Assembly (NCBI GenBank): GCA_946008205.1
Contig: CAMGAZ010000001.1
Span: 1-28,644 of the forward strand
Length of the DNA: 28,644 nucleotides
Source of the DNA: an uncultured Clostridium sp.
GTDB lineage: Bacteria > Bacillota > Clostridia > TANB77 > CAG-508
Direction of reading: 5' to 3'
Shown: in pieces, positions 17,901 to 27,852 of the stretch
Position numbering within the stretch: the first letter of the stretch is position 1
Layout: each line of letters starts with the position of its first letter
Position numbers and translations under genes: made by a program
The notes under the pieces: generated by a model
Told to the model about the DNA's origin: nothing
Databases searched by the model: none
Seen by the model: the letters and a program-made list of their open reading frames with translations, nothing else

Positions 17901-18045
17901 AAGCCCTTTGAATCACACGCAAGAGGAAAGAAAAAAAAGAATCGCGCGAACCGCAGTAAAACTTGACAATCACAAAAATTTTATAATGTCAACTGCGGGC
18001 TTACAGTAAAATCCGCGTTTTCTTTTTATTATAACATAAAAAATA

Positions 18046-18070
18046 AAGGAAAGCAATTAGCGCTTTCCTT
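18046..18070 (-). terminator. Terminator at the convergence point
   Basis: AAGGAAAGC...GCTTTCCTT overlapping the stop of 18057..18860. Confidence 0.6.
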
Positions 18071-18860
18071 CATTTTCTTCTTCAAGTTTTTGTAGTTTGC
18101 GCGCAAGCTTGTTCTCATCCTTTTGTTTTTGCTTTTGAATATTTAATTCTATTTCATGGGCAGTCAAAGGCTCTTGATCTATCTTAGGTAAGGTTCTAGG
18201 TATAAAGCACCACTTTTCGGCGAATTTGCAAACCGCGTTAAAATATTTTTCTTCCTCTTGTGCTTTGATAATATTACCAGTTTCTTCCCAAGAAAAATGT
18301 CCATTACAATATAATAACACAACTTGTTTTCTATCTACAAAATTAGACTTAAATTGCTCGCGCAAACATTCTTTCCAGAAATCGAGCGCATTTACCTCAT
18401 TCTCATTTATATCTTTTAGATATTCATATTTACCATCAGTCTTCATCCAAACCCAAGCGGTATCATCCCAATGCTTATTATAATCTTCATTAATAATAGT
18501 TCCATACTTGCGCGCAGCCGTAGAAGTCTTATGCTCCCACCTGTCGCGCACATCTTTTCTAGATCTTGCTATATTAGCCGCGGTATTATGAGGAAAATCC
18601 TTAAGTTCTTCTGCAAGACTTTCACGATAATCTTTATCCATCTCTTGCTTGCGTTTATCGTTATAGCGGACATATTCTGAGGTATCAAACTCTTCTTTGA
18701 GAATGATGTCACCACCTCGCGCCTTTTCGATATATTCAAAGTCAAAGTAAGATAACCAGTATGCAGAATAATCATCCCATTTGCGACTTATTGTTCTTCT
18801 ATTTTCACCTAAAAAAGAGCAAAACTTAGTTATAGAATATTTGTTTGGAGATATAATCAT
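18057..18860 (-). CDS. Hypothetical protein, distant paralog of 19407..20150
   Basis: 267 aa. N-terminal NKYSITKFCSFL...YFDFEY parallels NKEYSTTAFLKIL...YFDYEY. GAAAGGA RBS. Confidence 0.8.
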   Translation of the reverse strand: MIISPNKYSITKFCSFLGENRRTISRKWDDYSAYWLSYFDFEYIEKARGGDIILKEEFDTSEYVRYNDKRKQEMDKDYRESLAEELKDFPHNTAANIARSRKDVRDRWEHKTSTAARKYGTIINEDYNKHWDDTAWVWMKTDGKYEYLKDINENEVNALDFWKECLREQFKSNFVDRKQVVLLYCNGHFSWEETGNIIKAQEEEKYFNAVCKFAEKWCFIPRTLPKIDQEPLTAHEIELNIQKQKQKDENKLARKLQKLEEENEGKR

Positions 18861-19071: not shown

Positions 19072-19143
19072 CTGAGAAAAAAAAATGAGCAGAAAATTCC
19101 ACGTCTTTATAAAGAGGATTTTCTGCTCATTTTTTTTTCTCAG
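19072..19143. repeat. Long inverted repeat (25-bp perfect arms)
   Basis: CTGAG-A9-TGAGCAGAAAA ... TTTTCTGCTCA-T9-CTCAG. Confidence 0.9.
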
Positions 19144-19406
19144 CCGTGGTTTTGATTTCGTCCTAGAATCTGTTCCTTGGTTTTGAATTGAAAATTTGAT
19201 TTGCTCCTTGAGGTTGTTTTTAAAATGAAAATTGTGATTGCCCTCCGGGCAATCATTTTTTTAAAATGAAATTTATTGTCGTTCCGTATTCTGGCATAGA
19301 GGGGGTGTAACTAGGGTTTATAAACCCCCAGTAAAAAAATCCCTATTTTTTGCATAGTAAAAGTGATGTGGTTGCTATTTATAGCAACCACGCAACCATA
19401 TCACTC

Positions 19407-20150
19407 TTACCATGCTCCTTGTGATTGCTGCGGAGCAGCTATCACCCCTTTCTTCTCCCTCAGCGGCATTAACATAGGATACTTTCCAGTGTAATGTCTA
19501 AACTCATTCTTTGCAGCAATATATCGAGATAACTGTCCTTGTTTCATAGCTTCTAAACTTAATTCTCCCTCTTGATACATCTCTAATTCTAATGCTTCTT
19601 CTTCTAAATTCTCAGAACATTTCCACAATCTATAAAATAAATCTATTTCTTCATCTTCTAAATTAACTCTTTCTGGAATTCCATCCTCATTATATACTAT
19701 CGCGCGCCACTTGCGCTTTGCCTTATTAATATCGTAATGATTCTTCAAGGAACTGCGCGCTTGCCCCTGACAAGTTCTTCGCGCATATTCATAAGGATTA
19801 CCATCTTTATAATATATGTGATCTCCTATCTCGGATCCATTTACATATGCGCCATTTTCTTTTATATACTTATCTACTGTTTCGTCTACATATTCCATCA
19901 CCTTTTCTATTTGATACTTGCGCAAACCCATTCCTTCCGGTATTTCATCTTCTAAAATCTCTTTTATTTTAAAATACCATCTGTTACTATTCTTTTTCTT
20001 TTGATAATATTCATAATCAAAATAATTTTTAAATAATTCTAAATAGCGTTCTTTGTTTTTAGAAAAAGTCATAGAACCAATTTTTAAAATTTTTAAAAAA
20101 GCTGTAGTTGAATACTCTTTATTCAACTCTATTTCATTAATAAGATTCAT
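19407..20150 (-). CDS. Hypothetical protein, distant paralog of 18057..18860
   Basis: 247 aa, GAGAGGTG RBS. Confidence 0.8.
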   Translation of the reverse strand: MNLINEIELNKEYSTTAFLKILKIGSMTFSKNKERYLELFKNYFDYEYYQKKKNSNRWYFKIKEILEDEIPEGMGLRKYQIEKVMEYVDETVDKYIKENGAYVNGSEIGDHIYYKDGNPYEYARRTCQGQARSSLKNHYDINKAKRKWRAIVYNEDGIPERVNLEDEEIDLFYRLWKCSENLEEEALELEMYQEGELSLEAMKQGQLSRYIAAKNEFRHYTGKYPMLMPLREKKGVIAAPQQSQGAW

Positions 20151-20287
20151 AAAAGAATCACCTCTCTTTCATATGTTATAAAAAATCTTATCAATAACTT
20201 ATTATTTTTCGCCCAAAATCTTTTCAAGACCAAACTCTAGTTTAACGCCCGAATAGTGAAAAAAGTAAATATACTTATTTTTATTGA

Positions 20288-20343
20288 AATGTAAACTTCG
20301 ACGGACTCGTAATATTCTTTATGAATCCGTCGAAGTTTACATT
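20288..20343. repeat. 18-bp perfect inverted repeat
   Basis: AATGTAAACTTCGACGGA ... TCCGTCGAAGTTTACATT. Confidence 0.9.
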
Positions 20344-20537
20344 CTTATTCATATCTGCGATTTAACTACTTTCACTGCGCGGTCGTGATAGCTACTCCGT
20401 AGCGATCACACGTCCAATCCTTATAAAGCGTAGCTTTCACTATAAGACGTGTGATAGCTGCTTCGCAGCAATCACAAAAAACTTCTTCCCTTTTAAAATA
20501 ATGTGATTGCTGTTAAACAGCAATCATAATAATCATA

Positions 20538-20566
20538 TTCAAATTCTCAAAAAAATTTGTTATAAT
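20538..20566 (+). promoter_or_regulatory. sigmaA promoter
   Basis: TTCAAA-17 nt-TATAAT with an extended TG. Confidence 0.65.
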
Positions 20567-20642
20567 AATTATAGAAAGTGTGATTGCTATTGCATAGCAA
20601 TCACGAAATTTAAAGAGAATACATAACGAAAGGACATTTTGT

Positions 20643-22553
20643 ATGATGAATAACATTACATTTACAAACCTCCAGCAGATAGCGCTTTTAGTTCTTACAA
20701 AAACAGTAACAACAAGTGATTGCTGCGAAGCAGACAATCACAAAACCGAGCACGTTATGACTTGTGACGCGCTCTTGCATAGCGGTATTATATTTATAGA
20801 CGAGAACGATTTACCTATGTCTTCAGTTCCTAAAGCTATCGCGCAAACAGCAATAAGCTTTTATGGCTACAATAACGAAACTTTCAATAGCACATTAATA
20901 GAATCATTCGCGGCAGTTGCTAATATGTCACGAGATGAATTCTATTTAACACAGATACTCCATTATCTTACAACTTATGGAACTAACTTTACTACTCCAT
21001 TTACAGTGGGCGCGCGCACATTTACTCCAGAAGAAACAAAAGCGCTCAAAATAACTATCATACGCGCGGAATCAGCTTCAAGATCTTTGGAGAGGATTAA
21101 TGAACTTTTCGCAACTACTGTCGCGCCAAAGGCTCAGAACATTCACTATTATCGCGCTCTTGCGCCTTTAACAACAATCGCGCCGGAAGAAGTAAAGTCC
21201 AGAGAATTAATGATAATGATGTGCGCGGAACGCGGTATAAAACCTTCTGACCCAGAGACGCTCTTCAGATATCTGGTGTATTGCGCGACTAAGGAAACGC
21301 TTATTATTAAAAATAAGAATCTTATTAGTATAATAAAGCGTGCAGCGCGCAATAATATAGAACTTATCAATTCTCTTACAGAAGATGAAATGAAAGCGCT
21401 CGCTTCTATCTTCTACAGATATAAGCCTTTATTCCTTGCGTTCAAGACACCGGAGACCGCGAGCGTTATCAATAAGATACGTAGGCTTGCCGTTAAGTAC
21501 CATAAGCCGCAGTCCGCGAATACCATCAAGAACTTTGTAAACTTAAGCTCAAAAGAACAGGCAGCAATAATCGCGCGCGCAACCAACAGAGAACTGATAA
21601 AGCTTAAAAACGCGCTTGCAATACCTTCATGCACTCGTGTAATCCAGATCCGCAATGGAAAGATATGGGTTAAAGAAGAAGAAAAAGAAGGAAAAGTTTC
21701 CCTCGGAAGTCTTTTAGATAAAATTCGCGCGGCTAGTGCAATTGACATTGAACTGCGCAAGAGGTTAAAGAACTATAGAGGAATGACTGTCTATATACCG
21801 CGCGGAATCAGCTATGCGGTCCCATACTCAGAGAAACAGTTCTCAGGTACAATTCCATGGGGAACAGCTATATGCGCAACTGATAAAGAAAACGCATTTA
21901 CCATAGGCGTTCATTGGGTTAATGATCCAGATGAATCCGGTTGTGACTTAGACTTACATGCGCATACTCCTACTAGACGCTTTGGTTGGAATAATTATTA
22001 TATATCTGAAGATGGTGAAATCATCTACTCTGGAGATATGACAAACGCGCCAGCGCCTAAAGGAGCAGCGGAATCATTCTATATCAATAATATAAATGAA
22101 CCAGTTATATTAACTCTTAATGCTTTTAGAGCGAATAAAAACAAACAGTTCCAGTTCTTTATGACAGAGGGTAAGGATGATGAGATGCGCGAGCGTGCGA
22201 CTTTTGACTCCTCAAAACTCATAAGCGCGCCACTTCCACTTGCTTTTGCAGATAAGAATTCATTGTCACTCGGCATATTTAATAATAAGACTTTCTATGT
22301 TTATGGCGGAAATGTTGCTGAAGGTGCAATACCTTCGCGCGATTACCCAAAGTTTATAGAAGCATTATTAAATCGTATGTCTAGCACATATAGATTTGAA
22401 GCTCTTGCATCAGCTCTTAAGATAAACATAGTACATGAAGTTCCTAAAGATACACCGTTCTTAGACCTTTCTCCGGAAGCGCTCACAGTAAACACTTTAC
22501 TGGATTTTGTCGACGGGAATCTTGATAAATTACAGTTCTCTACTATTGCATAA
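20643..22553 (+). CDS. Large protein with C-terminal TerD-like domain
   Basis: 636 aa. GVHW...CDLDLHA...GWN...YSGDMTNAP...GAAESFYI resembles TerD-family beta-sandwich motifs. Confidence 0.65.
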   Translation: MMNNITFTNLQQIALLVLTKTVTTSDCCEADNHKTEHVMTCDALLHSGIIFIDENDLPMSSVPKAIAQTAISFYGYNNETFNSTLIESFAAVANMSRDEFYLTQILHYLTTYGTNFTTPFTVGARTFTPEETKALKITIIRAESASRSLERINELFATTVAPKAQNIHYYRALAPLTTIAPEEVKSRELMIMMCAERGIKPSDPETLFRYLVYCATKETLIIKNKNLISIIKRAARNNIELINSLTEDEMKALASIFYRYKPLFLAFKTPETASVINKIRRLAVKYHKPQSANTIKNFVNLSSKEQAAIIARATNRELIKLKNALAIPSCTRVIQIRNGKIWVKEEEKEGKVSLGSLLDKIRAASAIDIELRKRLKNYRGMTVYIPRGISYAVPYSEKQFSGTIPWGTAICATDKENAFTIGVHWVNDPDESGCDLDLHAHTPTRRFGWNNYYISEDGEIIYSGDMTNAPAPKGAAESFYINNINEPVILTLNAFRANKNKQFQFFMTEGKDDEMRERATFDSSKLISAPLPLAFADKNSLSLGIFNNKTFYVYGGNVAEGAIPSRDYPKFIEALLNRMSSTYRFEALASALKINIVHEVPKDTPFLDLSPEALTVNTLLDFVDGNLDKLQFSTIA

Positions 22554-23567: not shown

Positions 23568-23596
23568 TTCAAAAACAATAAAATTTTTGATATAAT
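23568..23596 (+). promoter_or_regulatory. sigmaA promoter
   Basis: TTCAAA-17 nt-TATAAT with an extended TG. Confidence 0.65.
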
Positions 23597-23629
23597 ATTA
23601 TTAAAGATAAGGAAAGGAAATAAAGAAAA

Positions 23630-27522: not shown

Positions 27523-27852
27523 TATACCTTTTTATAATAAAAATTAAACAATATATTTTACTTTTATTAAAAATTTTGGTCTATTCAGTACTATACAGCA
27601 AATTCCATATCACGAATACTCAAAATCTTTTTGCAAGAATCCAAAGGAATAGTATAGCTGCTACGCAGTAAAAATAGGTCCGCGCCTTGCAAGGCGCCCC
27701 AGCTACAGACGAATCCGACCGCGCCCATTATTTTGCTGCAAGCGCGCGGCACATTTTTAAAAATTTTTAAAATTTATGATAAAATATAAATGTAAACAAA
27801 AGAAAAAGTCAAATGACTAAAAAATAAAGAGCGTCTGAGGAGGAAGTTTAAT

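Follow-up and report, generated by a model that had tools for sequence, protein, structure and literature searches.

Small palindromic insertion repeats are known from bacteria (PMC3733652) and from mitochondria (PMC4478555), and cassettes that combine a promoter with a stem-loop are known from T4-type phages (PMC2839356). Here, we examine a 28,644-nucleotide stretch of DNA (the window), which is the entire contig CAMGAZ010000001.1 (C1) of a metagenome-assembled genome (MAG) of an uncultured Clostridium sp. (GCA_946008205.1), and describe a family of approximately 25-nt palindromes, eight of which are crowded into about 1.5 kb of it. These palindromes are probably small insertional hairpin elements, specific to one clade of phages, that serve secondarily as leader or terminator hairpins. 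We found no description of a phage hairpin unit of 25 nt that enters leaders, terminators, and open reading frames (ORFs) with short flanking duplications.

The Rickettsia palindromic elements (RPEs) are reportedly 100 to 150 bp long, lie in frame in protein genes, and add a folded peptide segment. REP and REPIN elements are imperfect palindromes of 20 to 40 nt that bear a GTAG or CGTC tag at one end and are linked to RAYT (Di Nocera et al. 2013, PMC3733652); REP copies often lie downstream of genes and are probably transcribed, some are intragenic, and their abundance varies between strains (PMC3733652). According to Wu and Hao (2015, PMC4478555), yeast GC42 and its relatives are short palindromes, relatively GC rich in an AT-rich genome, that turn over rapidly between strains and have putative target-site duplications; the centers of these mitochondrial GC clusters diverge rapidly, and the elements encode no transposase. 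The PeSL of T4-type phages are composite motifs of about 100 bp that are shuffled by homologous recombination (PMC2839356, PMC4122927). In the injection stop region of phage T5, the order and sequence of the repeats and palindromes are highly conserved among relatives (Davison, bioRxiv 10.1101/866236).

The palindrome family and its phage host

All eight palindromes have arms of the type GTGATWGC/GCWATCAC, are 23 to 26 nt long, and lie between positions 19234 and 20741 (coordinates are window positions throughout). A strict 25-nt pattern is matched five times, against 0.02 matches expected by chance. When folded as DNA, each of the eight forms a hairpin (-5.8 to -9.8 kcal/mol; z, -3.3 to -8.6), and these energies did not favor either strand. 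A first-pass annotation, made from the letters alone, had counted eight copies; it had also assigned GGA or GAA loops, on one or the other strand, to the copies at 19234, 19421, 20385, 20451, and 20716, and had placed two copies within coding sequence, one encoding GVIAAPQQSQ near the C terminus of the gene at 19407..20150 and the other encoding SDCCEADNH in frame in the gene at 20643..22553. All of this was borne out. Its two outlying GTA-loop relatives fared differently: that at about 19011 is an unrelated 4-bp stem, and that at about 27655 (TATAGCTGCTACGCAG) could be a decayed relic but falls outside the family as we define it. The stretch at 27652-27670, downstream of the second GIY-YIG gene, reads TATAGCTGCTACGCAGTAA and resembles the inner two-thirds of a family copy.

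The homologous locus was taken from 14 related contigs and two whole IMG/VR records, G001 (79% complete) and G002 (49% complete). L-numbers denote loci or contigs of related phages, G001 (L054-L060) is a related 123-kb phage, P-numbers denote homologs of the 636-aa protein encoded at 20643..22553, and C12 is another MAG contig of the same phage as C1. The copies in the window and the states of their sites in relatives are as follows.

19234..19256, copy 1: 10-bp stem, TCC/GGA loop, with a terminator-like T7 next on the + strand; of the orthologous sites, that in L006 is full and has a compensated center, those in L015 and L014 have lost half of the copy, and that in L013 is empty
19368..19391, copy 2: GTGGTTGCTA/TAGCAACCAC variant (GTGGTT/AACCAC) with a perfect 10-bp stem and a 4-nt loop; solo right-arm fragments GCAACCATATCAC come after it; orthologs have GTGATT/AATCAC, GTGGTT/AATCAC (a G.T intermediate), and GTGGTT/AACCAC
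19421..19445, copy 3: with its flanks a 30-nt in-frame insertion (19419..19448, - strand); flanking repeat CCTT
20385..20409, copy 4: intergenic, A.C mismatch at stem position 6, absent from L005 and L006; compensatory states in orthologs, CTAC/GTAG versus CCAC/GTGG and GTGAT/ATCAC versus GTAAT/ATTAC
20451..20475, copy 5: intergenic, A.A mismatch at position 6, TTC/GAA loop, absent from L005 and L014; in L013 and L016 the site has GAAAG/GAAAA repeats on its flanks
20503..20527, copy 6: intergenic, immediately upstream of the promoter of the 636-aa gene; carried by L016 (inverted) and L013, lacking in L015, L005, and L014
20580..20604, + strand, copy 7: perfect 11-bp stem, placed about 14 nt past the -10 box in the 5' leader, with GAAAG before it and TTAAAG after it; a 31-nt insertion relative to L015, L016, and L049, with flanks GAAAGT/GAAATT
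20716..20741, + strand, copy 8: a 26-nt unit that bears a one-base bulge and is read in frame within the hypervariable N-terminal linker of the 636-aa protein; in L005 the left arm and loop (18 nt) are gone and the right arm GACAATCAC is kept

A further site, at about 17930-17940, is empty in the window and consists of a T-run only; L013, L049, L052, L053, and L067 carry a terminator-type copy there, flanked by T-runs.

The MAG (331 contigs, 1.84 Mb, about 31% GC, 87% complete) holds nine copies in total, and because the only one outside the 1.5-kb cluster lies on C12, a contig of the same phage, where it sits behind a promoter sequence identical to that of copy 20580, the palindromes are a local cluster of a phage-clade-specific family and not a genome-wide REP. 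The genome-wide count proposed in the first-pass annotation thus showed no dispersal through the MAG, and a genome-wide REP is ruled out by the copy numbers. C1 itself is phage DNA that was binned into the MAG. It encodes a phage sigma factor family, several families known only from PHROG, two GIY-YIG genes, a T5orf172 gene, and many small rightward genes, and at least 12 other contigs of the MAG match the same phage. Related contigs in IMG/VR and ENA/Logan reach 123 to 142 kb. The largest ORFs of G001 and G002 (2,897 and 2,992 aa) encode tape measure proteins (PF10145, phrog_34405), and their remaining ORFs do not exceed 1,200 aa; with a tape measure protein of about 2,900 aa in these relatives, the host of the palindromes is therefore a clade of large gut (Clostridia-type) siphophages of about 120 to 140 kb. 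Comparison of the region with the phage DNA in GenBank gave zero matches. Public contigs of the clade (L013, L015, L016, L049-L053, G001) often terminate within the palindrome cluster, which suggests that the repeats, or strain heterogeneity at the repeats, break short-read assemblies.

Gain, loss, and junctions of discrete units

Relatives carry the family across the whole clade, to as little as 54% identity of the 636-aa protein, and each of those examined has its copies concentrated at a hyperplastic locus that extends from the leftward genes, which encode proteins with predicted winged helices, to the first 100 nt of the 636-aa gene. In four loci of 17 to 22 kb, none of the 15 copies is more than about 2.7 kb from the start of that gene; the 123-kb relative G001 has only two, both in leaders of one promoter type. 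A scan of all of IMG/VR with a 16-base pattern returned 32 matches, nearly all of which we read as chance (diverse GC content, unpaired centers), the exception being two contigs with a copy after a -10 box.

Multiple alignment of the loci revealed full, half, and empty states at nearly every site, and what is gained or lost between close relatives is a discrete unit of 18 to 32 nt. The two coding copies follow the same pattern. The 10-codon insert of copy 19421 (the VIAAPQQSQ segment) is missing from all seven full-length homologs of the 247-aa protein encoded at 19407..20150, one of them at 48% identity. In the 636-aa protein, the linker between the motifs ALLxLTKTV and MTCDxLLH (20643-20770; P0012-P0119) is hypervariable in both length and sequence, with more than 100 alleles, the commonest of which has no palindrome. 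Where a palindrome is present, it is translated in one frame as SDCCEADNH or GDCCGAVNH and in another as VIAAEQSIT; other alleles have VIAADAAIT straight after LTK, or SDSCKAAIT as a 10-aa insert relative to an otherwise identical allele. Intragenic copies use only these two reading frames, which avoid the TGA of GTGA; in the third frame, the TGA of a palindrome is the stop codon of an L006 gene. The gene call for P0097 has a spurious N-terminal extension that begins in a leader palindrome (ATGATTGC). Half-elements consist of the right arm alone in L005 and L015 and of the left arm alone in L014, and deletions adjoin some copies in the locus alignment.

To examine junctions, we deleted each palindrome in turn and aligned the joined flanks to other loci. 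Empty sites were recovered, and they differed from full ones by the palindrome plus 0 to 7 nt of duplicated flank. Direct repeats of at least 5 nt within 2 nt of the element accompany 20 of 70 copies (29%), compared with 2.4% at random positions within 1.5 kb. Many insertions have direct repeats of 4 to 7 nt of the target at their borders, frequently GAAAG-like. The repeats at individual sites are as follows.

Leader insertion of copy 20580: GAAAGT/GAAATT
Relatives, at the site of copy 20451: GAAAG or GAAAA
Behind the 247-aa gene: GTAAA(A)
Another site: AATTTGC
Terminator-type site, unoccupied in the window near 17935: CTTTTTT
One L066 insertion: none

Three paralogous promoter leaders were entered at one identical point, TATAGAAAG^TTAAG. 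The leader position of copy 20580 is also occupied at C12:4733, G001:15177, and G001:26794, and likewise in the orthologous leaders of the more distant L066 and L068; one phage has two tandem copies in a single leader, with GAAAGG added per copy.

Taken together, these comparisons support the conclusion that individual copies have been inserted and lost repeatedly in one control region of the phage. The suggestion in the first-pass annotation of a small mobile palindrome spreading locally is likewise supported, by site-by-site presence and absence, by the flanking duplications, by covariation in the stem, and by alignment of homologs of both genes, in which the palindrome segments are insertions. 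The copies are thus neither unchanged in all homologs nor devoid of stem covariation.

Several observations weigh against this interpretation. The polarity of insertion versus precise deletion was inferred from outgroups at a few sites only, and many of the counted copies are orthologous and hence not independent. The flanking repeats vary in length from 0 to 7 nt, half of the copies have none, and some repeats are homopolymer runs, all of which is unlike canonical transposition. Neither an enzyme nor a de novo event was found. Finally, strict clustering at one regulatory locus, together with a stem base conserved across a deep clade, is compatible with a functional array of binding sites as well.

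The hairpin unit, its neighbors, and competing explanations

The structure of the unit was assessed on 16 distinct 25-mers, in which 90% of the cells are paired. The outer five pairs and pairs 7 and 8 are nearly invariant, while pairs 10-16 (GC 8/AU 7) and 11-15 (CG 10/UA 6) exchange by double changes; the covariation score of 0.238 (shuffled, 0.159) was reached by none of 500 shuffles. Compensated changes also occur within the conserved arms of orthologs, where GTGAT/ATCAC becomes GTAAT/ATTAC, GTGATT/AATCAC becomes GTGGTT/AACCAC through a G.T intermediate, and GTGATTGCC becomes GTGATTACC together with its partner. Of the 16 sequences, 11 have a W.W mismatch at stem position 6, and a 26-nt class has a one-base bulge after GTGATTG; the mismatch and bulge are inherited with the unit, and in our reading nearly all asymmetric copies share one orientation relative to the genome. 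The loops (GGA, GAA, TCC, TTC, TAA, TGC, TTTA, AAA, and others) change orientation with respect to the asymmetric arms. The elements measure 22 to 27 nt and keep constant 8-bp arms, so that the spacing of the arms varies by 5 nt; on duplex DNA the arms would therefore change register, while in a hairpin the 8-bp helix is always the same. The conserved outer 8 bp, the covarying inner stem, and the variable spacing point to recognition of a hairpin rather than of a duplex operator. This suggests that the folded form is what matters, the main argument being the variable arm spacing around a constant 8-bp helix.

The unit consists of an 8-bp stem base (GTGATWGC/GCWATCAC), 2 to 4 variable paired inner base pairs, and a 3- to 4-nt loop, and we propose that it is recognized or copied in a folded, single-stranded form, since only the stem base and the pairing are constant and the arm spacing varies. 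It would then spread by copy-and-insert, either through template switching at short microhomologies during replication or repair or through a phage factor that binds the stem base. Known landing sites are 5' leaders, intergenic spacers, gene ends, and, in frame, protein segments that are hypervariable or predicted to be coil. In the leaders, a copy either directly follows a strong extended -10 promoter or separates the ribosome-binding site from the start codon; others lie beside T-runs. After insertion, a copy presumably acts as a hairpin in RNA or DNA and is tolerated, or of mild use, as a leader hairpin or, beside a T-run, as an intrinsic terminator. A stable hairpin is a compact insert and need not alter the effective spacing of a leader. 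Given that about 20 promoters of the same type do without a palindrome, we regard these putative leader and terminator roles as secondary. Flanking repeats of variable length speak against a canonical, fixed-stagger transposase and are compatible with microhomology-guided copying or imprecise repair; copying of the folded unit at microhomologies in replication or repair is the candidate route that we favor over a dedicated enzyme.

The neighboring genes, the promoter, and two inverted repeats of other kinds complete the locus.

18057..18860, - strand: gene for a 267-aa protein, present in all relatives examined
19072-19143: perfect 26-bp inverted repeat, flanked on either side by A9/T9 runs and resembling a bidirectional terminator; almost unchanged in L006 and L013
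19407..20150, - strand: gene for a 247-aa orphan protein, within the palindrome cluster; two winged-helix-like domains predicted
20288-20343: hairpin with an 18-bp stem that separates the palindrome cluster from the promoter region of the 247-aa gene
20538..20566, + strand: sigma-A-type promoter with extended -10 (TTTGTTATAAT), part of a promoter-leader cassette repeated many times in the phage
20643..22553, + strand: gene for a 636-aa conserved phage protein (more than 1,000 homologs), whose leader and N-terminal linker are recurrent insertion sites

The cassette AAAAATTTGTTATAATAATTATAGAAAGTTAAGG occurs about 20 times ahead of rightward genes in G001 and, in the window, at 20550-20580 and 23580-23610. 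The hairpin at 20288-20343 keeps its structure among relatives but has three wholly different, fully compensated stems, with RNA folding energies of -25 to -37 kcal/mol and strong covariation. For the repeat at 19072-19143, Rfam yielded only sub-threshold hairpin look-alikes.

Searches of Pfam and PHROGs and for remote homologs assigned none of the 247-aa, 267-aa, and 636-aa proteins to a family, and the label "TerD-like" that the first-pass annotation had given the last of these is without Pfam support and amounts to a weak language-model lead. The family of the 247-aa protein has only 32 representatives among 1.8 billion proteins, and a scan of JGI metagenomes gave no match to it. Its N terminus is weakly similar to that of the 267-aa protein (tblastn E value of 4.5e-4, in a small database). 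A structural model built from a deeper alignment (pLDDT 88.7) predicts two winged-helix-like domains joined by a long helix, with the palindrome-encoded tail past about residue 234 as coil (pLDDT 75 at residues 231 to 240, below 50 at 242 to 247). In fold searches, VIA-align returned winged-helix matches only (Z, 3.2 to 4.3) and Foldseek nothing at an E value of 0.001 or less; no nuclease or recombinase fold was among the matches listed, which does not exclude one. The gene is internally deleted in L016 and nearly wholly deleted in L068; the commonest lineage has lost almost all of it and retains six copies of the palindrome. Loss of the gene with the copies kept weakens the case for an indispensable partner and leaves the protein, as modeled, a plausible binder that is not required; nothing suggests that it is an enzyme.

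How, then, should a cluster of hairpins beside such genes be explained, if not by small insertional elements? The palindromes could form an operator-like array of docking sites for a phage DNA-binding protein (the 247-aa and 267-aa proteins being candidates) that controls the divergent and a few other promoters, with turnover as ordinary regulatory evolution. This would account for the conservation of the stem-base sequence, for the constant position of the cluster in a divergent control region beside genes for proteins with predicted winged helices, and for the several copies about 5 to 30 nt downstream of a strong promoter. However, arms whose spacing varies by 5 nt are incompatible with a rigid dimer on B-DNA, for which half-sites at a fixed spacing would be expected; palindromy and covariation extend through the center; copies lie in frame in coding sequence and beside T-runs; a lineage that has lost nearly all of the 247-aa gene keeps its copies; and the promoters without a palindrome work all the same. 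On balance, we consider such an array unlikely. Insertions in two ORFs, and between a ribosome-binding site and a start codon, cannot come from the exchange of cassettes, and full and empty sites differ by the palindrome and at most 7 nt rather than by a whole cassette, which speaks against whole-cassette recombination of the PeSL kind as the source of the copies. It is a similarly doubtful proposition that the hairpins are transcription punctuation (terminators, attenuators, or 5' stabilizers) exchanged by homologous recombination between promoter-leader cassettes, not independent insertions. In its favor, the module of promoter and palindrome is repeated (window 20580, C12:4733, G001:15177 and 26794), about one-quarter of the distinct copies adjoin T-runs in our reading of the flanks, the locus is hyperplastic with gene loss and replacement, and T4-type phages have such cassettes, with promoter and terminator activity tested (PMC2839356). 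Termination, on the other hand, requires no conserved stem sequence.

The first-pass annotation had looked to REP/HUH substrates and N4 promoters as relatives, and the inner parts GC-GGA-GC and GC-GAA-GC do match the very stable GNA mini-hairpin type, a parallel to N4 promoters; covariation, too, favors hairpin geometry. Nevertheless, we think it highly improbable that these are single-stranded-DNA or hairpin sites of a known type, be they N4-like promoters, single-strand origins, or REP/IS200-type substrates of an HUH/Y1 enzyme. No match to PF01797 (Y1/RAYT), and no Y1, RAYT, or HUH gene, was found in the MAG (87% complete), G001 (79%), or G002 (49%), all of them incomplete records, while six control genomes did score with PF01797; the RAYT/IS200 reading was set aside on this basis. 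The giant ORF that might have encoded an N4-like polymerase encodes the tape measure protein, and since this is the largest ORF of the 79%-complete G001, there is no virion RNA polymerase. N4 hairpin promoters, which a giant virion RNA polymerase reads, have a short stem and a conserved purine-centered 3-nt loop in a fixed orientation upstream of a start site; the loops here are unconserved and flip. Neither a GTAG nor a CGTC tag is present, as all copies begin with GTGAT or GTGGT and end with ATCAC or ACCAC, and Rfam gave no match to the palindrome beyond sub-threshold hairpin look-alikes. Among ways in which insertional hairpins might spread, a dedicated copy-and-insert system is also conceivable, in which a phage factor of no known transposase family would recognize the 8-bp stem base with its position-6 mismatch or bulge, maybe together with the orphan winged-helix proteins, and paste the 25-nt unit at GAAAG-like single-stranded targets. 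We judge this improbable. If a dedicated factor does exist, it would represent a new kind of hairpin-recognizing mobilization system, and the palindromes would be among the smallest actively mobilized elements and would give a phage a natural means of rewiring its leaders, terminators, and protein linkers.

Relation to known systems

The family would explain the broken assemblies at this locus, the spurious N-terminal extensions in gene calls, and the length polymorphism of two proteins. The clade is abundant enough in gut metagenomes (more than 1,000 homologs of the neighboring 636-aa gene) for public data to yield the polarity, target choice, and rate of insertion.

Among the phage systems, the injection stop region of T5 is similar in that there, too, a large siphophage has a cluster of palindromes bordering a block of early genes. 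We do not regard it as a close match, since the T5 region is conserved and the copies described here turn over between near-identical phages. PeSL share with this locus strong sigma-70-type promoters and stem-loops in hyperplastic regions, a stem-loop possibly placed past the -10 box, and a link to genome plasticity. Their composite arrangement is found at copy 20580, at C12:4733, at G001:15177 and 26794, and in the L066 and L068 leaders; the other copies lack it. Unlike in PeSL, the 25-nt hairpin alone varies, short duplications flank it, and it enters ORFs in frame.

By analogy, the behavior of the palindromes most resembles that of the mitochondrial palindromic GC clusters and of intragenic REPs or RPEs. 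As with mini-insertion repeats, a discrete palindrome is present in one close relative and absent from another, copies in frame within genes included. Like REPs, the phage units are imperfect palindromes in the 20- to 40-nt range that often lie downstream of genes, are probably transcribed, occur in part inside genes, and vary in abundance between strains; unlike REPs and REPINs, they have no GTAG/CGTC tag, no RAYT was found with them, and they number only nine, in a phage genome. Like RPEs, they sit in frame within coding genes without destroying them, although they add only 6 to 10 residues, in hypervariable or predicted coil segments. With the mitochondrial GC clusters they share short GC-richer palindromes, fast turnover, putative duplications, diverging centers, and the lack of a transposase of their own. 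They differ from those clusters in belonging to a phage rather than an organelle, in being 25 nt long with a conserved 8-bp stem base, and in being gathered at one locus rather than dispersed.

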